Shown in pieces: positions 1,251 through 58,283 of a DNA stretch of 64,000 nt. Source of the DNA: Oligoflexales bacterium (GTDB lineage Bacteria; Bdellovibrionota_B; Oligoflexia; Oligoflexales; JAPPIL01). Under the pieces are notes generated by a model that had not been told where the DNA came from, did no database searches, and saw only the letters and a list, made by a program, of their open reading frames with translations. The DNA lies in the NCBI GenBank assembly GCA_965215515.1, contig OZ244057.1, forward strand, positions 1,994,514 through 2,058,513, read 5' to 3'. Within the stretch, counting starts at the first letter, position 1, and the number at the start of each line of letters is the position of its first letter. The translations under genes and the position numbers were made by a program.

Positions 1251-4200
1251 ATGTATTTGTGGTACGCGCCCGAACATCGCGGGCTGATTGGACGGGGGGT
1301 ATCGGTGCTCGGCAAGCTTGGGCTTACTCTGCTGCTGTGTAGTTGGCAGTCGTCGCTGAAGGCAGGGGTTGTGGGCAGTTTTGACGGCGTGCGCAACTTG
1401 CCAGGCTACATCTCCCTGCAACGCGGTGATGATGCGTATCGTGATTTAGTCAAGCGACCGCGGCGGCGTGGCGATGCCCTTGAGCAGCGCGGTGCGTCTC
1501 GTATTCTGAAGGAAGATTACCTGCGCGACGATGGCACAATCGATATCGCTGCTCTTGACGCGAAGATCATCGCCATCAAGGAGCATGAAAACGTAGCTTT
1601 CCTGACCTATTGTGTCGCAAGGTTGCCCCACGAAGCGGTGCAGCATGTGGAGTGGTGTCAAAGCCGTGCGGACGAAAAAATTAAAAAAAAGTGGCGGAGG
1701 AGCAAACTCGCAGCTATCTACGCTTTTGCCCTCAGCGAGCTGCACAAGGCACGTCAGTGTGCGGCGGGCGTACGCAGCGATAACATCAACCAGGCATCGA
1801 GCCAAAATTTCTTGGAGCATCTGTTTCAGGGTCTAGAAACCTTCGCCAGTATTATCGATACAGACCCTATCAATTCTGATTTTTTCAATGCAATTATGCA
1901 CGGCATCGACTTCAGCAAGGTGCGAGTAGGTTTCGCTGTCGAAGCTGCTAATCTCGTCATTCCCGTAGCGATGAAGGAGAAGTATTCTGAGTTGCAGAAG
2001 CAGGTTTTTTTCTCGCCGCGGCAGTTGCAACGTCTCGCCCCGCGTGAGGGTCTAGACATCTCGGCCATCGACCCTCTGGACTCTGGTTTTTGGCGTAAAC
2101 CACATTCAATCCGTGCCTTCAACACCAGCAACTACAACGGCCAAAGTGGTTTGCCCGATGATGTTGCTGACGTACATAAGGAAATCGCGGTCACCTACGA
2201 CTGGGATGGCAAGTTTACGGGGCGCACTCCCAAGATGCGCGTGCGCTACCGCGACGAACAATACAAGATGAAATATCTTTCCGAAGCGATGGACATCGAG
2301 CATGCCGATGCGCTGAGTAAGATTCACATGCATTGGCGCAAGCATGCTAGCGAAGTCAACACCGAGACGGTGGTCAATAACATCGCCGCGGCACTCGGTT
2401 TTACTGTCGATCCCACTTTCTTTAAGCACAGTGTCAGGCTGTATCTGCCCTTGCAAGACCCAACTTCGCAGGAAGAATTTGACCGTGCCTATCAACGTCT
2501 GTTAGCTGATCATCGACGTTGGAGCGGTTATACTCCTGACAGGGCTTTAGCGAGAATAGCTAGAGATGAGCGCGGCTATTGGTTTATTCGCATGCGTTCG
2601 GTGTCGCTGGAGCGGCGTTCGCAAGTGGGTACCGATCTCAACGTCGGTGGTTTTATTAAGGCTGCGTTCAGTCGCCCCCTGAAGCGGGAGTTCCGTGCCT
2701 TCGCCTTGTTCCTCGCTTGGTTCTCGGACTTGGATGTCAAGGACGATAACGCCAGCATCGTGTTGGTAGGTGATGCCGACGGACGCAAGGTGGCTTACAG
2801 TGCCGCAGACATGGGGGCGGTACTCGGTAGCTGGATGGGGAAGGATTCGCCGAATTTTCTCAACCGTGATCTGGTCTCGCGGGTGCGACGTAAACCCGAT
2901 GGCTCGATCTACGAAATCGTGCTCAACTACATCTCTCCGTTCGGCAATTCATCCTTGAACGTCATTAGTATCAGCGATGGTAAGTGGATAACACGTCTCA
3001 TCGCACAGTTGTCGCCGACTCAAATCAAAAAAGCTTTCTTGACCGCGGGCTATTCGGAACTGCTCAGCGAGTATTATACCCAGCTAATGCTGCGGCGGCG
3101 CGACCAGCTCGTGGAAGTATTCGGGTTGATGGGGCACACGATCACCGATGCTGCGGGCACGAATATTTTTCTCAAGCCTGAGAGTAAGATGACCGATCCC
3201 GACACGTATGCCGTCGAAGGGTACGAGCAGTATTTTAAAGATGGCTATCTGCACGACCCAGAGGGGGAGGTTTCGGACAACCCTGGCGATTTTGTGCGGC
3301 GCTATTACGACCGCAATCTCGTCCATGCAACCCCTGGCACGCTGCAAAATGCCCTTTGGAAAACGGTCGAGGCTTGGCTGAAAATCAGCACAGTGTCGAT
3401 GACCAGTCAACGCCTGCACAAGTTGAAAATCACCAACCGCACCTTTGGCCTGCCGTTATTGCGCGGTGGTTTCTGTGCGCGTGAGTGTTTTTATGACGGT
3501 TTACGGATCGGGATCACTAACTTTTTGCCGCAGCGTTTTTTGTTGCGCAACCCCTATGATACAAAAGAGAAACCCCTGCTCGTTGTTGATGTTTATCGGT
3601 TTGGTTTTTTGCTAGGGGCTGACGTGGGGGAGGATTTACCCGCTCGTTTTGGCATCGATGCACCGTTGGACGATCGGATGCCGCAGCTGCGCTACCAGAA
3701 AGTCTATGAGTTTGTAAAAGTCAAGCCGCTGAGCACTATTGTCGATAGCGTCAAAACCTTGCAAGAATTATCTCCGCTACAGGTTTTGAAGTATGGAAGA
3801 ATTCACCAGCAGCTTATCGAACAGTTGCAGCCTGGCGAAAGCCTTATCGCCAGCACCTATTTGAGCCGTGGGGCAGGAGTGCAGCTCGGCAAGTACCCGT
3901 TTCTCAGCCGTCCGATGGTCAATGCGGAGATTGATCTGAGTCATATCGTCGTGAGTCGCAAGGCTTTAATCAGGAGCGCGGATAAATTTTTGTTTCAGTT
4001 TTCTGATCTCAAAGCTAGCAAATTCAAGGCGGAGATAGGAGGCGAGTTGCTGTTGACTGATTTTCCTCTTCTCAGTTGGAAAATGGAAAAGCTTGCCCAA
4101 ATGGATCGGGTCTTCGCATTACCCGCCGCGGGGGAGCATTACAGCTTGCTGGAGGAGAACCTGGCGGCGCGCTTACCTTCTGATGATATAGCTGACTTTG

Positions 4201-5195
4201 CCGTAATCGCACGTGCCGTTGCACGTGTCAAAAACCAGTTCAGTCTTATCCTGAAACCAGCAAAGTTTTTCTTATCCGACACAGATATCGCTACGATCAA
4301 AACAGACGGCAGCGCGGGTGCTGCTGAACTGCACATTGCGACAGTAACAGAAAAAAAGAAATTCAGGTATTTACCTTTCTACAGTTCACACAATACCACG
4401 CTCGAAAGTTTTGTTACTCAGGACGAGCAGGTATTCGTCAGGCTGCGGATGAAATTCAAAAACCTTTTTGGTAAACGTGAGCACTTCAAGTGGGTTTACC
4501 AGCACATGTTGCCGCTGCTAGGCAGACCATTTATCTTGTTTACGCCTGAGGATGTTAACTACTACCTCGATGATTTTGAATTCGCGGGCGAGGTTTACCT
4601 TCTTCCCGAAGGGGTGGAAAAAATTATGGCTTATAGGCAGGTAACCAAACAAGAATTTTGTGTAGCCTATGCCAACGCGGCGGGTAAACTAAACCCCCAA
4701 CGATGGTGTGAGAAACTGTTCGCTGACGAACTCGGTACGTTTACGGGACGAGGACGTATGCGAAGCTACGACGAGCGGAGGTTTAGAAGTTTTTTCGGTC
4801 GTTACCTCGAAGCCACCCATAGCTGGCTACGGCAACCGACGGGTGACATGTCGGAAGAAGAGCGTGACCAGCTGTGGCGTGATAAAGCACGGACAATCGC
4901 TAGAATGCTCAGTGTGGATGGGTTCAATGCCGCGGTGTGGAAAATGTGGCAGCGCATCGCAGGAGAAGAAAACATTTACCGTGACGGCATTCTCACTTCA
5001 CGTACGGGCGGTTTTCCATCCCAGAGCAAGATAGTTGCCATGCCTGCCTCAGTGCGTGGTCGAGCGGGAGAAAGGGTGGCGGAGGTTTACAGAAACATCG
5101 TGCAGTCGGTGCAAATTTCTACCGATCCGCTGTTCAGTGAACTCAGCCAAGTGTTCTACGAGCCGATGGGGGAAGGCTACTTTTCCGATCGCTAG
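1251..5195 (+). CDS. Very large (about 1300 aa) hypothetical secreted or lipoprotein-like protein with a putative atypical protein-kinase-like core
   Basis: There is a single uninterrupted ORF at 1209-5195. The start is uncertain: TTG 1209, ATG 1251, or GTG 1305 preceded by a GGGGGG run. The N-terminus has a hydrophobic stretch ending in Cys (LGKLGLTLLLCSWQSS). Internal motifs resemble kinases: DGKFTGRTPKMRVRYRDEQYKMKY (Gly-loop and Lys), FSDLDVKDDNASIVL (DxKxxN catalytic loop) and AADMGAVLG (DFG-like). I recognised no other family. Confidence 0.7.
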   Translation: MYLWYAPEHRGLIGRGVSVLGKLGLTLLLCSWQSSLKAGVVGSFDGVRNLPGYISLQRGDDAYRDLVKRPRRRGDALEQRGASRILKEDYLRDDGTIDIAALDAKIIAIKEHENVAFLTYCVARLPHEAVQHVEWCQSRADEKIKKKWRRSKLAAIYAFALSELHKARQCAAGVRSDNINQASSQNFLEHLFQGLETFASIIDTDPINSDFFNAIMHGIDFSKVRVGFAVEAANLVIPVAMKEKYSELQKQVFFSPRQLQRLAPREGLDISAIDPLDSGFWRKPHSIRAFNTSNYNGQSGLPDDVADVHKEIAVTYDWDGKFTGRTPKMRVRYRDEQYKMKYLSEAMDIEHADALSKIHMHWRKHASEVNTETVVNNIAAALGFTVDPTFFKHSVRLYLPLQDPTSQEEFDRAYQRLLADHRRWSGYTPDRALARIARDERGYWFIRMRSVSLERRSQVGTDLNVGGFIKAAFSRPLKREFRAFALFLAWFSDLDVKDDNASIVLVGDADGRKVAYSAADMGAVLGSWMGKDSPNFLNRDLVSRVRRKPDGSIYEIVLNYISPFGNSSLNVISISDGKWITRLIAQLSPTQIKKAFLTAGYSELLSEYYTQLMLRRRDQLVEVFGLMGHTITDAAGTNIFLKPESKMTDPDTYAVEGYEQYFKDGYLHDPEGEVSDNPGDFVRRYYDRNLVHATPGTLQNALWKTVEAWLKISTVSMTSQRLHKLKITNRTFGLPLLRGGFCARECFYDGLRIGITNFLPQRFLLRNPYDTKEKPLLVVDVYRFGFLLGADVGEDLPARFGIDAPLDDRMPQLRYQKVYEFVKVKPLSTIVDSVKTLQELSPLQVLKYGRIHQQLIEQLQPGESLIASTYLSRGAGVQLGKYPFLSRPMVNAEIDLSHIVVSRKALIRSADKFLFQFSDLKASKFKAEIGGELLLTDFPLLSWKMEKLAQMDRVFALPAAGEHYSLLEENLAARLPSDDIADFAVIARAVARVKNQFSLILKPAKFFLSDTDIATIKTDGSAGAAELHIATVTEKKKFRYLPFYSSHNTTLESFVTQDEQVFVRLRMKFKNLFGKREHFKWVYQHMLPLLGRPFILFTPEDVNYYLDDFEFAGEVYLLPEGVEKIMAYRQVTKQEFCVAYANAAGKLNPQRWCEKLFADELGTFTGRGRMRSYDERRFRSFFGRYLEATHSWLRQPTGDMSEEERDQLWRDKARTIARMLSVDGFNAAVWKMWQRIAGEENIYRDGILTSRTGGFPSQSKIVAMPASVRGRAGERVAEVYRNIVQSVQISTDPLFSELSQVFYEPMGEGYFSDR

Positions 5196-6352: not shown

Positions 6353-7513
6353 GTGCAAGGTAGGTATTTGTTCACCTCGGAGTCGGTGAGCGAAGGACAT
6401 CCCGACAAAATATGCGATCAGGTTAGCGATGCCGTGCTCGATGCGTTGCTGGCCAAGGACACACAAGCACGGGTGGCTTGTGAGGCATTGGTGAAGACAG
6501 GACTGCTGGTGCTAGCAGGTGAGGTCAGCAGCACCGCACACGTCGATTACGGACAGCTGGCCAGGGAGGTGATCGCCGACATCGGCTACGACGACCTCGC
6601 TCTGGGTTTCGATGCCAGCACCTGTGGAGTGCTAGTGGCAATCGAAGAACAATCACGGGACATCGCCATCGGCGTTAACGAAGGTAGCGGTCTGGATCGC
6701 AGACTAGGAGCAGGCGATCAGGGAATGATGTTCGGCTACGCGTGCGAGGAAACACCTGAACTGATGCCAGCTACCATCAGCTACTCACACCAACTGCTAC
6801 GTAACCTCGCCGAACAACGACGCCGCGGTAAGGTTAAATTCTTGCGCCCCGATGCCAAAAGTCAAGTAACAGCCATCTACGAAAATGACCGTATGGTCGG
6901 CATCGACGCAGTAGTCGTCTCAACCCAACACCATAAAGAAATTAGCCGCGATGACCTGAAAGAATTCGTCATCGAAGAATGCATCCGTCAAGTCATCCCC
7001 GCGGAGTTGCTGTGTGCTGACACGGATTTTTTTGTCAACGAAACAGGAAACTTCGAGGTCGGAGGGCCACATGGTGATTGCGGCTTGACAGGGCGCAAAA
7101 TCATCGTCGATACCTACGGCGGACACGGCTCGCACGGCGGAGGGGCGTTTTCAGGCAAAGACCCCACCAAGGTCGATCGCTCGGCCTCCTACATGGCGCG
7201 CTGTATTGCCAAAAACCTCGTCGCCGCAGGCACGTGTGGCAAGTGCTTAGTGCAAATTGCCTATGTTATTGGCAAAGCAGAGCCAGTGTCGGTGTACGTC
7301 AACACCTATGGCACAGCGAAGGTGGGCGGGATAGACTTCCCCCAACTGGTGAGAGAAACCTTCGCCCTGCAACTGAAGGACATCATCACCTCGCTCGATC
7401 TGCGCCGCCCTATCTATCGAGAGACCGCGGCATACGGTCATTTTGGGCGCAACCAGTTTCCGTGGGAAAAACTTTCTCATGTTGATAAAATCAAGGAGAA
7501 GATCTTCAGCTAG
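6353..7513 (+). CDS. metK: S-adenosylmethionine synthetase
   Basis: Motifs [37 protein letters not shown] and [19 protein letters not shown] are present. The length of 386 aa fits. Confidence 0.97.
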
Positions 7514-16633: not shown

Positions 16634-17827
16634 CTAGTCCAACACTTCCGCCACCACTCCCGCACCGACCGTGCGTCCGCCCTCGCGCAGGGCGAAACGT
16701 AGCTCCTTATCCATCGCAATCGGTGTAATGAGATCGACTTCCATGTCGATGTTGTCGCCAGGCATAACCATCTCAACGTTATCAGGCAACTTGATAATAC
16801 CTGTCACGTCCGTGGTGCGAAAATAAAATTGCGGACGATACCCCTTGAAGAAGGGTGTGTGTCTGCCACCCTCCTCCTTGGTCAACACATATACCTGCGC
16901 CTTGAATTTACGATGCGGCGTAATCGCACTAGGCTTGGACAGCACCTGTCCACGGAAAACTTCGTCCCGCTTCGTGCCGCGCAGTAGCACTCCCACGTTG
17001 TCACCCGCCCGCCCCTCGTCGAGCAGTTTGCGAAACATCTCTACCCCTGTGCAGGTAGTTTTGCTCGTTTCCTTGATCCCGACAATCTCAATCTCATCAC
17101 CGACCTTGACAATACCCCTCTCAATCCTACCCGTGACTACCGTACCCCGTCCAGAAATAGAAAACACATCCTCGATAGGCATCAAGAAATCCAAATCAAT
17201 AGGACGATCAGGAACAGGAATATAGTCGTCGCAAGCTTTGACCAACTCAAAAATAGCCTTGCAATCGTCACTATCGATGTTGTCGGATTCGAGCGCTTTC
17301 AAAGCCGACCCCTTGACAATAGGGGTATCGTCGCCAGGGAACTTGTACTCACTGAGCAGTTCCCGCACCTCCATCTCCACTAAATCAAGCAACTCGGCAT
17401 CGTCTACCATGTCAACCTTGTTGAGGAAGACTACAATCTTGGGCACACCTACCTGACGCGCCAACAAAATATGCTCCCGCGTCTGTGGCATCGGCCCGTC
17501 CGCCGCACTCACCACCAACACCGCACCATCCATCTGCGCGGCACCCGTAATCATGTTCTTCACATAGTCGGCATGACCAGGACAGTCAACGTGTGCATAA
17601 TGGCGCTGCTCCGACTCATACTCGACATGCGAGGTCGAAATCGTAATTCCCCGCTCCTTCTCCTCAGGAGCCTTGTCAATCTCCTCGAACGCTAACGCCT
17701 GCCCACCGAATTTCTTCGACAATATCTTGGTAATCGCTGCCGTCAACGTCGTCTTGCCATGATCGACGTGACCGATCGTACCGACATTAACATGCGGCTT
17801 GTTGCGCTCGAATTTCTCCTTCGCCAT
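16634..17827 (-). CDS. tuf: Elongation factor Tu
   Basis: [49 protein letters not shown] and NKVDMVDD are present. The length is 397 aa. Confidence 0.99.
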
Positions 17828-17930
17828 CCCTGACCTCCACGGTTAAACTAAAACCCACACCGAAAATATCCCGACTCGCCAGCCGTCATACCCCACAACA
17901 AAGAAATTGACAACAACAGCCTCTCCGTTA

Positions 17931-18002
17931 AGCCTGAGATGGGATTTGAACCCATGGCCTCATCCTTACCAAGGATGTGCTCTACCCCTGAGCTACACAG
18001 GC
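17931..18002 (-). tRNA. tRNA-Thr (anticodon GGU)
   Basis: The reverse complement is GCCTGTGTAGCTCAGGGGTAGAGCACATCCTTGGTAAGGATGAGGCCATGGGTTCAAATCCCATCTCAGGC. It forms a cloverleaf with the anticodon loop TTGGTAA and one U-U mismatch in the acceptor stem. Confidence 0.85.
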
Positions 18003-18339
18003 CCAGCACACATACACACAAAGCGGAAGACGGGGATCGAACCCGCTACGCTCGCCTCTCCGCCGCTTCCTCGCTCCGCTTGGAAGACCGATGCCCCCCA
18101 GCACACATACACACAAAGCGGAAGACGGGGATCGAACCCGCTGCGCTCGCCTCTCCGCCGCTTCCTCGCTCCGCTTGGAAGACCGATGCCCCCCAGCACA
18201 CATACACACAAAGCGGAAGACGGGGATCGAACCCGCTACCCTCGCCTCTCCGCCGCTTCCTCGCTCCGCTTGGAAGACCGATGCCCCCCAGCACACATAC
18301 ACACAAAGCGGAAGACGGGGATCGAACCCGCTACCCTCA
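18003..18339 (-). repeat. Tandem 95-bp repeat (3 full units plus a partial unit merging into glyT), each a 5'-truncated tRNA-Gly-like copy
   Basis: GCGGAAGACGGGGATCGAACCCGCT recurs at 18023, 18118, 18213 and 18308, an exact 95-bp period. Units differ by 1-2 substitutions (cgctACGctc, cgctGCGctc, cgctACCctc). Each unit is a 20-nt CA-rich spacer followed by 75 nt. Confidence 0.9.
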
Positions 18340-18379
18340 GCTTGGAAGGCTGATGCTCTACCAGATGAGCTACTTCCGC
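18307..18379 (-). tRNA. tRNA-Gly (anticodon UCC)
   Basis: The reverse complement is GCGGAAGTAGCTCATCTGGTAGAGCATCAGCCTTCCAAGCTGAGGGTAGCGGGTTCGATCCCCGTCTTCCGC, with anticodon loop CTTCCAA. Confidence 0.9.
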
Positions 18380-18406
18380 ACAACCCACACACAAGCCTAG
18401 CAAGCA

Positions 18407-18489
18407 TGGAGGGAGATGGATTTGAACCATCGAAGGCTAACGCCAACGGGTTTACAGCCCGTCTCCTTTGGCCACTCGGACACCCCTCC
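18407..18489 (-). tRNA. tRNA-Tyr (anticodon GUA), long variable arm
   Basis: The reverse complement is GGAGGGGTGTCCGAGTGGCCAAAGGAGACGGGCTGTAAACCCGTTGGCGTTAGCCTTCGATGGTTCAAATCCATCTCCCTCCA, with anticodon loop CTGTAAA. Confidence 0.9.
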
Positions 18490-18503
18490 GTGACAGAACA
18501 CAG

Positions 18504-18576
18504 AGCTGGCGATGGGACTTGAACCCGCAACCTGCTGATTACAAGTCAGCTGCTCTACCAGTTGAGCTACGCCAGC
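18504..18576 (-). tRNA. tRNA-Thr (anticodon UGU)
   Basis: The reverse complement is GCTGGCGTAGCTCAACTGGTAGAGCAGCTGACTTGTAATCAGCAGGTTGCGGGTTCAAGTCCCATCGCCAGC, with anticodon loop CTTGTAA. There is one mismatch in the T stem. Confidence 0.85.
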
Positions 18577-18650
18577 CTAACAGACACAACCCCCTGCGGC
18601 TAGGAAGTCACCGAAAAGTTATGACCGAATGACAATCTCATGTCAACAAC

Positions 18651-19343
18651 TTAACTCCCAGAACAACTGTGCTGCTGCAAAAAAATCGCCGCGGCCGCCG
18701 ACACATTCAACGACTGCAACCTCCCTCGTCGCTCACTCACCCCTCCCTCAATGCACAACAGGCGATCACACTGTGCCCGTACCGCAGGCGATATCCCCCT
18801 GCCTTCCGCACCAAACACCAACACCTGCTGGGCAAAGAAACCACTGTCCCGCAAACTTTCCCCCACCATATCCGCACCCACTACCCAGAAACCACGCTTC
18901 TTTAAATTCACCAACGTGCGCGCCAAATTAGTCACCAAAAAAAGATCCAACAACGCAAAACCACCCCGCGCCGCATTAACCACCGCCGCAGTCAAACCAA
19001 CCTGCCGCCGCCGCGCCACCACCACACCCCGCACCCCAAAGAAAGCCGCCGAACGCACCACCGCACCGAGATTATGAGGATCGACAACATGATCGAGCGC
19101 TACCAACACACGGCCCAACCTGCCCGCCCCCAGCACCGCGTACAACTCACTCTCATAGCGCGGCGTAAGCCTCAACTCCGCCACCACCCTCTTGCCAGCC
19201 TGACCCCGCACCGCGACATCCCGATCCGACAAGCCACGCAAGCGCGCCACCAAACGCGGCGGACAGCCGACCTCTACCACCACCTGCGGACGATGACGTA
19301 GATACTCCGCAACATGCCGCTCGCCCTCAATGGTAAACTTCAC
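18651..19343 (-). CDS. SpoU/TrmH-family RNA 2'-O-methyltransferase (RlmB-like)
   Basis: LDHVVDPHNLGAVVRSAAFFG, VLVFGAEGRGISPAV and LQSLNVSAAAAIFL are present. The likely start is GTG 19343, which overlaps the upstream stop (GTGA). Confidence 0.8.
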   Translation of the reverse strand: MKFTIEGERHVAEYLRHRPQVVVEVGCPPRLVARLRGLSDRDVAVRGQAGKRVVAELRLTPRYESELYAVLGAGRLGRVLVALDHVVDPHNLGAVVRSAAFFGVRGVVVARRRQVGLTAAVVNAARGGFALLDLFLVTNLARTLVNLKKRGFWVVGADMVGESLRDSGFFAQQVLVFGAEGRGISPAVRAQCDRLLCIEGGVSERRGRLQSLNVSAAAAIFLQQHSCSGS

Positions 19344-20500
19344 CGCGCCGCAGAGCCGCGATACGAAGCCGTTACCCGCGTTAGCTCCCTGGCAGGCAAC
19401 AAATCCACCGCCGTCTGCAGCAAAAAACGCGTCAACATATGTATCCTGCCAGCATAAAAACACACCCGACTCGGATCAAGTACACAATGATTCGCCATAC
19501 ATGCCAACGCATGCGGAGTGATGTCAGCATTACAACCCAACACCAGCGTACGCAACCAAGGACTTGTCAACGTCGCAGAAAACTCACGCACCACTCCTAA
19601 CTCGCCCTCACAGCCATTGCGTGTAAACGCCACCGTCACCTTCTCCAATACCGCCCGATAGCTGTCCACCGCCTCCTTGAGCACAGCTAACTTCTCCTCT
19701 GCCAACAACCCCCTGTCAACAAAATCAGCCTGCAACGAACAGACATCCATCATCACCAACTCCAACAACGCCGCCATCGTATAAGGCGCACTCAAACGCG
19801 AGGCCTTCACCACCTCACGCACACTACGGTGACTCACCACCAAAGCCAACATGTCTCCATGAAAACTATCACGCCGCAACGACGTAGCCTTTTCTTCGGA
19901 AACAGTCAAAAGAGTGCCATCACCAACTGCGTGACAGAATTTTAGAAAAATTGCATTGAAGCTTTTAAAAGATTCAACGAGTTCATAACAGTCATCTACG
20001 ATAGCGAGGTTGGTTGCAGGTGGTGTGCCCCGCTGTATCCGATAGCTGACGTGTTCGTGCATGAACAGTGACCAGACGGTGCTGATAAGCTGCATCTGTA
20101 GCGCCTGCCACAGCTGAATACTGTTCATGAGACCGTGCTTGCGTATTACCTGTCCGAACTTGGTGGCAGGAGTCACCTTCATCGCTAACTCGGCCAACTG
20201 CTCGGCCGTCAGTAGGTCACGTCGTCGCAGCACTTCACCGAGACGGTCATCGCTAAGTGTCGAAGTCGCAAAACAAAAACGCCCCTGATCGAGGTAAAGG
20301 CATTTTTGCCGCTTTCCTACGTCGGCGGTAATCATGCCTGACCAGCGGTCACGGATCAAGCCCTGTAGCAGATGGCCGAACACCTGCGGCGAACTACGCC
20401 CTACATCGATGCCTGGTGCAAGTTTGTCAGCACTGTCGGTTGCTGCCAATGTAAAATCCCCCCCGTGAAGCACTAGTTCTATTCTAACAACATTTCCCAC
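19340..20500 (-). CDS. DUF4388 (PATAN-like) domain-containing protein
   Basis: The N-terminal pattern VFGHLLQGLIRDRWSGMITADVGKRQKCLYLDQGRFCFATS matches the DUF4388 signature as I remember it. The start is uncertain: GTG 20500 lies 2 nt after the upstream stop, and the maximal ORF extends to 20605. Confidence 0.55.
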   Translation of the reverse strand: MGNVVRIELVLHGGDFTLAATDSADKLAPGIDVGRSSPQVFGHLLQGLIRDRWSGMITADVGKRQKCLYLDQGRFCFATSTLSDDRLGEVLRRRDLLTAEQLAELAMKVTPATKFGQVIRKHGLMNSIQLWQALQMQLISTVWSLFMHEHVSYRIQRGTPPATNLAIVDDCYELVESFKSFNAIFLKFCHAVGDGTLLTVSEEKATSLRRDSFHGDMLALVVSHRSVREVVKASRLSAPYTMAALLELVMMDVCSLQADFVDRGLLAEEKLAVLKEAVDSYRAVLEKVTVAFTRNGCEGELGVVREFSATLTSPWLRTLVLGCNADITPHALACMANHCVLDPSRVCFYAGRIHMLTRFLLQTAVDLLPARELTRVTASYRGSAAR

Positions 20501-58209: not shown

Positions 58210-58283
58210 TGGGTCTGGGGGGACTCGAACCTCCGACCTCACGCTTATCAGGCGTGTACTCTAACCAGCTGAGCTACAGACCC
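58210..58283 (-). tRNA. tRNA-Ile (anticodon GAU)
   Basis: The reverse complement is GGGTCTGTAGCTCAGCTGGTTAGAGTACACGCCTGATAAGCGTGAGGTCGGAGGTTCGAGTCCCCCCAGACCCA, with anticodon loop CTGATAA. There is one A-C mismatch in the T stem. It is not part of an rRNA operon here. Confidence 0.85.

Follow-up and report, generated by a model that had tools for sequence, protein, structure and literature searches.

A tRNA-Gly-derived tandem repeat within a tRNA-tuf operon of an Oligoflexales bacterium

The window analyzed here, 64,000 nt of contig OZ244057.1 from an Oligoflexales bacterium, carries a tRNA-tuf operon in which three near-identical units resembling part of a tRNA-Gly gene are lined up between tRNA-Gly(UCC) and tRNA-Thr(GGU). 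The locus raises the question of what these units are: tRNA genes, sources of another RNA, or products of recombination. Considering unit anatomy, tRNA and RNA family searches, predicted folds and the corresponding loci of relatives, the array is most likely a tRNA-Gly-derived minisatellite and not a set of tRNA genes.

Anatomy of the array and comparison with tRNA genes

Tandem Repeats Finder placed the array at 18002-18338 (period 95, 3.5 copies, 98% matches, no indels, score 653); no other array in the window reaches a score above 70. The repeat is located, on the minus strand, in the spacer that separates tRNA-Gly(UCC) from tRNA-Thr(GGU) upstream of tuf; this spacer measures 303 nt and holds three units of 95 nt (Table 1). 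The T-arm/acceptor string GCGGAAGACGGGGATCGAACCCGCT begins at 18023, 18118, 18213, and 18308. A preliminary description made from the sequence had claimed a 95-bp tandem repeat, and both the repeat search and the four string starts confirm it.

On the transcribed strand, each unit opens with a 20-nt GU-rich spacer (UUGUGUGUAUGUGUGCUGGG), the same as that before tRNA-Thr(GGU), and continues with a 75-nt remnant of tRNA-Gly without the 5' acceptor strand. The remnant comprises, in this order, a decayed D-arm (GCUGGGGGGCAUC), an altered 5' strand of the anticodon arm, the loop CUUCCAA, tRNA position 40, an insert, and the 3' part. The anticodon-arm 5' strand is mutated at three positions. The insert is a purine-rich sequence of 24 nt (GGAGCGAGGAAGCGGCGGAGAGGC), which follows tRNA position 40 and replaces position 41. 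From tRNA position 42, 46, or 48 up to position 73, the 3' parts match the gene without a difference over 32 nt in unit 1, 26 nt in unit 2, and 28 nt in unit 3. The T-arm and the 3' acceptor strand are intact in each unit, with 26–32 nt matching the 3' end of the real tRNA-Gly, and each unit terminates at the exact tRNA 3' end. Variation among the three units is confined to unit positions 67 and 69: unit 1, which adjoins the gene, has the gene's GAGGGTAGC, and units 2 and 3 have GAGCGCAGC and GAGCGTAGC. This anatomy, together with the ARAGORN and Rfam results, agrees with the earlier view of the units as pseudo-tRNAs derived from tRNA-Gly within a thr-tyr-gly-thr-tuf operon, and the copy next to the gene is indeed the most gene-like, being identical over 32 nt. 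A D-loop remnant had also been recognized correctly; its restriction to the D-loop did not stand, since the decayed D-arm remnant is present.

The units were called neither by ARAGORN at default settings nor by the Rfam tRNA model RF00005, even at E ≤ 10, and the sole Rfam clan matches over them were to tRNA-Sec (16–18 bits vs. a threshold of 47). With the 5' acceptor strand missing, the best surrogate pairings for an acceptor stem contain two mismatches and G-U pairs, and in the relaxed ARAGORN model of the unit the D-loop is just GGGG and U33 is missing. When ARAGORN thresholds were lowered to 95%, unit 3 only was called, as a 91-nt "tRNA-Leu(CAA)" with two acceptor mismatches; at 80% (-ps80), all three units were called. 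However, control sequences in which the 5' 66 nt had been shuffled and the T-arm kept were called in 232 of 300 cases at 80% and in 8 of 300 at 95%. The pseudogene-mode search proposed in the preliminary description therefore gives no evidence of tRNA-likeness, as its relaxed calls are matched by shuffled controls, and the tRNA-Leu(CAA) identity was rejected as sub-threshold only and reproduced by the same controls. Relaxed searches of the relatives' units returned Pro-UGG, Leu-UAG, or no identity.

Predicted folds give the same impression. The minimum free energy (MFE) of the units equals that of dinucleotide shuffles (z −0.3 to +0.5), and forcing the T-arm costs about 6 kcal/mol vs. the MFE structure. 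The MFE structure of the intact tRNA-Gly(UCC) is the cloverleaf, with z = −2.6 vs. dinucleotide shuffles. RNAalifold, applied to units of three lineages, predicted no T-arm, and its two "compensatory" columns rest on one lineage split. Two special structures were considered and rejected. A minihelix using the insert as a surrogate 5' acceptor strand would have weak pairings that are not conserved between lineages, at a cost of 6 kcal/mol vs. the MFE. An intron-containing tRNA would have its intron at the canonical site in the anticodon loop (37/38); here, the insert comes after position 40, in a remnant without the 5' acceptor strand. The ARAGORN intron search on the units found nothing beyond the relaxed calls.

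Copy number and concerted evolution among relatives

Relatives were represented by 12 loci of an uncultured clade found by EF-Tu search (EF-Tu 93–96% identical for the clade, 94–96% for the 12 loci). EF-Tu of the closest relatives differs from the window EF-Tu at 16 residues at least, and the clade tuf genes share 83–86% nucleotide identity with the window tuf; the next EF-Tu matches, from the named Oligoflexia Pseudobacteriovorax and Oligoflexus, are about 85% identical. A GTDB scan with the D and anticodon arms of the tRNA-Gly revealed two distant genomes only, both without repeats.

Across the clade, the pseudo-Gly unit has a period of 95–118 bp and a copy number of 0–4. Two units of 118 nt lie in the 281-nt Gly–Thr(GGU) spacer of L003/L004, and one unit in the 163-nt spacer of L005/L006, the EF-Tu protein of which is the same as in L003/L004 (tuf 99.8%). 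L013 has at least two units, including a complete one of 103 nt and a last one truncated inside the motif, i.e., the counterpart of the purine-rich insert. The 441-nt spacer of L015 contains one pseudo-Gly with an insert of five tandem 37-nt motif copies. In the group formed by L009, L011, and L019, the 5' half of the unit T-arm is replaced, in L009 by unrelated sequence; L009 has four units, each about 115 nt long, and a partial one (spacer 573 nt), L011 one unit plus a partial unit (242 nt), and L019 a partial unit only (148 nt). No unit is found in L010, L008, and L041 (spacers of 257, 26, and 32 nt), and the outgroup L016/L017 (tuf 80%) has a compact operon with a 2-nt spacer and without any motif. 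As the tuf genes of L009, L011, and L019 are 98.9–99.4% identical and the contigs span 1.6–3.2 Mb, their 4, 1, and 0 complete units point to real copy-number turnover on a short timescale. Regarding sequence differences, the units of L003 (2607-2613, 2725-2731) and L013 have the anticodon loop CUGCCAA (GCC), not CUUCCAA (UCC), and a disrupted anticodon stem.

The copy-number comparison suggested earlier thus reveals unconstrained variation between 0 and 4 units, even between near-identical genomes. Near-identical head-to-tail units and copy-number polymorphism among close relatives are the features of a minisatellite or variable-number tandem repeat (VNTR). Furthermore, the units lack an acceptor helix and a conserved fold, and neither their copy number nor the integrity of the T-arm is constrained, which is the picture that the preliminary description had associated with neutral duplication.

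The unit itself is old. The motif starts directly after tRNA position 40 or 41 in every lineage with a downstream unit, and pseudo-Gly units are found at the same place in L003/L004, L013, L015, and L009/L011/L019. The insert-bearing unit, with the same left junction, is common to lineages with tuf just 83–88% identical. Units from the window, L003, and L013 can be aligned, and are mostly identical, between the anticodon arm and the 3' end, motif included, whereas their spacers are unalignable; descent from one insert-bearing pseudo-Gly of a common ancestor explains this best. At the same time, the unit's 3' part has the same acceptor and T-loop states, specific to the lineage, as the real gene in the window (UUCGAUC and CUUCCGC), L003 (UUCGACU and CUCCCGC), L015 (UUCGAUC and CUCCCGC), and L009 (GACUCCCGUCUCCCGCU), i.e., at all loci with both on the contig. 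In addition, the window unit next to the gene has the gene's GAGGGTAGC in place of the pseudo-type GAGCGTAGC. Lineage-matched 3' parts and a gene-like unit 1 argue for unequal crossing-over and gene conversion between gene and units. Unequal crossover, one of the origins considered before, is supported by the copy-number differences in near-identical relatives, by concerted evolution, and by the recombinant unit beside the gene. The recency assigned to such scars applies to the amplification to three copies; the insert-bearing unit is old and shared by the clade. Likewise, the insertion is not private to this genome, as the insert is a member of a clade-wide family of short motifs.

We therefore consider it probable that the array is a minisatellite that arose and persists through unequal recombination with the real tRNA-Gly, is co-transcribed with the operon, and is discarded. 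In the clade ancestor, part of tRNA-Gly(UCC) would have been duplicated to a site downstream of the real gene, the copy lacking the 5' acceptor strand and being broken after tRNA position 40 by the purine-rich motif (GGAGC-AG-AAGCGGC-AGAG-CG). This duplicate would have kept about 30 nt of perfect identity to the 3' end of the real gene and the same following spacer. Because of this identity and the shared spacer, unequal homologous recombination or replication slippage could repeatedly expand and contract the array, and out-of-register recombination with the real gene and among its own copies could overwrite the 3' parts of the units, resulting in concerted evolution. In the source genome, a recent expansion would have led to three 95-bp units. 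As the units lie between two tRNAs, 3' of the only promoter-like site, with no internal terminator-like site, they are presumably transcribed within the tRNA-tuf precursor and removed as spacer, and the array would be neutral.

The purine-rich motif, known repeat systems, and rival explanations

The motif interrupting the units has the consensus GGAGC[T/G]AG[N]AAGCGGC[N]A[A/G]GAG[G/C]CG. A pattern search of the 64-kb window gave three matches (0.11 expected), all in the units and none elsewhere. In relatives, the motif is found at further sites. A 5'-type pseudo-Gly, in which tRNA positions 1-19/20 are followed by the motif, is located upstream of the real gene in five loci, within the Tyr–Gly spacers (L009 2105-2165, L010 2422-2480, L011 2436-2496, L019 2455-2590, and L041 2420-2724). 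It occurs in tandem twice in L019 and three times in L041. The element is not present in the window, where the Tyr–Gly spacer (18380-18406) measures 27 nt. In L009, L010, L011, and L019, it ends in (G)ATGCTCTACC, the reverse complement of tRNA-Gly positions 18-28; in the precursor, this segment might base-pair with the D-arm of the real tRNA, which lies about 30 nt further downstream. L008 has pure motif arrays in the operon leader and the Tyr–Gly spacer (2070-2369 and 2588-2669), with periods of 22, 37, 38, and 44. The five 37-nt copies within the single pseudo-Gly of L015 (2488-2700) are situated at the variable-loop position.

The motif also extends into coding regions of relatives. About 4 kb from tuf, L008 contains at 6893-7111 (minus strand) an 18-bp × 9 array of GAGCTAGGAAGCGGCAAG (in frame, ELGSGK) and a 24-bp × 2.5 array of the same motif, both in the 3' part of a called open reading frame (ORF) for a putative 922-aa protein. 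Several lineages have a variable motif-bearing insertion in the C-terminal coding part of the SpoU gene upstream of the operon (L003 ~2110-2150, L009 ~1715-1760, L010, L011, L019 2064-2110). The insertion is absent in L015 and L041, and the window equivalent (~18720-18760) is a short purine-rich stretch only. An origin of the motif from tRNA-Gly, sense or antisense, was rejected, as local alignment was no better than for shuffles. The motif arrays of the relatives had no Rfam match, and the motif itself had no match in IMG/VR and one chance match, in a coding region, in JGI metagenomes. The family represents an unexplained repeat class.

The closest verified precedent for the array is the E. 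coli tyrT repeat (rtT/tpr). On NC_000913, we verified a 178-bp repeat with 3.1 copies and 95% identity right after tyrV, each unit of which closes with the 19 nt that form the 3' end of tRNA-Tyr (AAUCCUUCCCCCACCACCA); annotations of the region are the small RNA (sRNA) rttR and the small ORF tpr. The rtT RNA has been summarized as being involved in processing of the tyrT transcript and possibly in the stringent response (bioRxiv 10.1101/2024.07.17.603846). Both loci have about three tandem copies of high identity directly downstream of a tRNA gene and inside its transcription unit, and in both, a copy of the upstream tRNA's 3' end closes each unit, with the same spacer after it. In contrast to the 19 nt of tRNA kept in E. 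coli, the window units keep about 50 nt, including the anticodon loop and the whole T-arm, and their tRNA remnant is interrupted by a foreign motif. Moreover, the E. coli repeat stands at the operon end, whereas the window array is internal, between two tRNAs and ahead of tuf. The two loci are not similar in sequence, and the rtT RNA model RF00391 gave no match to the window array at E ≤ 10; the array resembles the tyrT locus in architecture and is not a member of the rtT family, having no Rfam match. Furthermore, a processed RNA, hypothetical for the window array, is annotated for E. coli tyrT.

Other known systems share single aspects. As in bacterial VNTR or minisatellite loci, near-identical head-to-tail units are homogenized within the array and vary in number between near-identical genomes; unlike there, the unit derives from an essential tRNA gene, keeps recombining with it, and resides in a highly conserved operon. 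The tRNA-Pro/His cluster of Photobacterium phosphoreum is a repetitive tRNA cluster with tRNA pseudogenes, in which whole tRNA genes are amplified. Tandem amplification in a tRNA operon yields pseudo-tRNAs in both cases, but only a 5'-truncated, insert-bearing fragment is amplified in the window. Duplications of tRNA 3' ends at attachment (att) sites also produce a direct repeat of the tRNA 3' part beside the intact gene; unlike these, the window has no integrated element, multiple copies, and an exact period including the native spacer. Rickettsia palindromic elements are short selfish repeats found inserted in protein-coding and RNA genes. Like them, the motif occurs in tRNA-derived sequence, in spacers, and in protein-coding regions of relatives; unlike them, it is about 25 nt long and not palindromic, has no predicted structure, and its mobility is putative.

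Several points weigh against a minisatellite that is merely carried along by recombination. The insert-bearing unit survives across lineages with 83–88% tuf nucleotide identity, and the non-tRNA motif is conserved, whereas the spacers are not, which is not what pure neutrality predicts unless another process maintains the motif. Copy-number variation was seen in sister lineages only, not within the source species. The fate of a discarded spacer is an assumption, as the E. coli counterpart yields a discrete RNA (rttR annotated). An alternative is a functional processed RNA, i.e., a unit or the whole array that is cut from the precursor and accumulates like the rtT RNA of E. coli tyrT. Its role might be that of a regulator or sponge, sequestering for example a protein with affinity for the GGA-rich motif or enzymes that bind T-arms and 3' ends, or it might tune processing and output of tRNA-Thr and EF-Tu. 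Conservation of the motif between lineages with unalignable spacers, persistence of pseudo-Gly units through the deep clade, and the constantly sense orientation of the motif relative to local transcription, in the operon and at two other sites in relatives, would fit this explanation. So would the E. coli precedent, which is annotated as sRNA, and the description of rtT as involved in processing and the stringent response (bioRxiv 10.1101/2024.07.17.603846). Nevertheless, we regard a processed RNA as unlikely, given that the units share no conserved secondary structure and are no more stable than shuffles, that copy number varies from 0 to 4 among near-identical genomes, that one lineage has a destroyed T-arm and three (L008, L010, and L041) have lost the units, and that no Rfam family, rtT included, matches. 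A more elaborate version appears improbable as well: units and motif could form a clade-specific functional module, yielding discrete rtT-like RNAs with repeated GGA-rich motifs and mimics of T-arm and 3' end, which would titrate an RNA-binding protein or tRNA-processing or -modifying enzymes, with array length as a fast-evolving "dial" on the output of tRNA-Gly, tRNA-Thr, and EF-Tu.

The process behind the arrays could also be propagation of the motif itself, instead of recombination between tRNA segments, which would make the locus the footprint of a small mobile or insertion-prone repeat. The motif occurs at two different breakpoints of tRNA-Gly (positions 19/20 and 40/41), in pure arrays with periods of 18–44 in the leader and spacers of L008 and within one L015 pseudo-Gly, in the called 922-aa ORF of L008, and, in several lineages, as a variable insertion in the 3' part of the SpoU coding region, and it lacks significant similarity to tRNA-Gly. 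Yet it is restricted to the three units in the 64-kb window, lacks terminal inverted repeats and a palindrome, was not seen with any transposase, and had no IMG/VR match and one chance match in JGI metagenomes. Moreover, period-95 units spanning spacer and tRNA part are the signature of segmental tandem duplication, so that we consider a mobile repeat quite improbable as the driver. Integration and excision of elements targeting the 3' end of tRNA-Gly, proposed before as a source of the repeats, would have left attL/attR remnants. Ends of tRNA genes on the 3' side are common attachment sites, and every unit ends with the exact tRNA 3' end. Between the copies, however, nothing but the normal 20-nt Gly–Thr spacer is present, neither foreign DNA nor an integrase; the head-to-tail period of exactly 95 bp takes in the spacer, and the units reach back to the D-arm, beyond typical att cores. 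Moreover, all 21 of 21 matches to the tRNA-Gly 3' end, in 19 IMG/VR loci, fall within complete phage tRNA genes, and no integrase-bearing element separates gene and pseudo-unit in the 12 loci. This origin was not borne out and is very improbable. Expansion of a single repeat by the assembler is the explanation we find hardest to credit. Short repeats can be mis-resolved, and the difference between L003 and L005 comes from short-read scaffolds and could reflect collapse, but the three units represent three different two-site haplotypes, an identical EF-Tu protein is on record from a contig of 2.18 Mb that is presumably the source, and comparable arrays are found in independent assemblies of five other lineages, several on contigs >1.5 Mb.

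If the array is indeed a minisatellite maintained by recombination, even a deeply conserved operon of the thrU-tyrU-glyT-thrT-tufB type can accommodate a minisatellite that evolves fast and consists of tRNA-fragment copies. The 3' end of the fragment would be kept "fresh" by the functional tRNA gene as template, providing a clean bacterial example of concerted evolution between a gene and its pseudo-copies. The arrays are candidate strain-typing loci for this uncultured lineage, and they produce spurious ORF calls and pseudo-tRNA calls in relaxed search modes. Should stable RNAs arise from the units, the little-understood rtT-type RNAs would gain a second and independent example. Most worth following are the turnover across the clade, the motif family that also enters coding regions of relatives, and the way in which the units evolve in concert with an essential tRNA gene.

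Operon setting in the window

The minus strand carries the order Thr(UGU)-Tyr(GUA)-Gly(UCC)-repeat-Thr(GGU)-tuf. In direct comparison with NC_000913, gene order and anticodons equal those of E. coli thrU-tyrU-glyT-thrT-tufB, as had been stated before. The tRNA cluster is flanked by genes for the SpoU methylase, EF-Tu, and a patatin (Table 1).

Table 1. Coordinates of the operon, the repeat units, and associated features in the window.
Feature	Coordinates	Strand	Remarks
SpoU-family methylase gene	19463..18654	-	upstream of operon, with terminator-like hairpin
Promoter-like TTGACA-17 nt-CATAAC	18618..18646	-	5' of first tRNA; read from sequence, putative function
tRNA-Thr(UGU)	18503..18576	-	first operon gene; ARAGORN; Rfam tRNA model 68.3 bits
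tRNA-Tyr(GUA)	18407..18489	-	ARAGORN; Rfam 54.7 bits
tRNA-Gly(UCC)	18307..18379	-	intact; probable donor and recombination partner of units; ARAGORN; Rfam 68.3 bits
Repeat unit 1	18212..18306	-	spacer 18287-18306 (20 nt) + pseudo-tRNA-Gly 18212-18286 (75 nt)
Repeat unit 2	18117..18211	-	variant GAGCGCAGC where variable loop meets T-stem
Repeat unit 3	18022..18116	-	variant GAGCGTAGC, state also in L003, L013, and L015 units
Motif GAGCGAGGAAGCGGCGGAGAG	unit 1 18246..18266; unit 2 18151-18171; unit 3 18056-18076	-	homologous to inserts of relatives
Final spacer copy (partial fourth period)	18004..18021	-	immediately 5' of tRNA-Thr(GGU)
tRNA-Thr(GGU)	17930..18003	-	ARAGORN; Rfam 69.9 bits
tuf (EF-Tu, 397 aa)	16634..17827	-	last operon gene; translation; Pfam GTP_EFTU, D2 and D3

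The promoter-like element is kept in sequence and position in relatives L003, L008, and L019; a consensus scan passed over it, as the −10 hexamer ends in C. Within the array, the site scan found no promoter-like or terminator-like site. Terminator-like hairpins on the minus strand were found at 18687-18703, after the SpoU gene and ahead of the tRNA promoter, and, in a weak form, at 17872-17885 between tRNA-Thr(GGU) and tuf, the latter being a possible attenuator. Five overlapping ORFs of 86–182 aa on both strands extend across the tRNA cluster and the repeat (17907-18530), and called ORFs of 31–103 aa lie in the arrays of relatives. These ORFs are very likely spurious, as they are not conserved between relatives. 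A coding array was rejected, since the period of 95 is not a multiple of 3 and the ORFs differ between relatives.

Beyond the operon, a few minor observations were made. A lone tRNA-Ile(GAU) is located at 58210-58283 on the minus strand of the window; tRNA-Ile(GAU) is usually located in rRNA operons, and there is no rRNA gene anywhere in the window. The IMG/VR contig L029 contains at 3939-4593 two tandem copies of a tRNA-Thr(UGU)–tRNA-Gly(UCC) pair, then tRNA-Thr(GGU), and in the vicinity a tmRNA gene; the contig may be a host fragment or a prophage border. Finally, the segment 18001-20000 of the window displays a strong strand asymmetry (GC skew −0.33, AT skew +0.29), and the G/T-rich transcribed strand of the spacers results in CA-rich runs on the plus strand.

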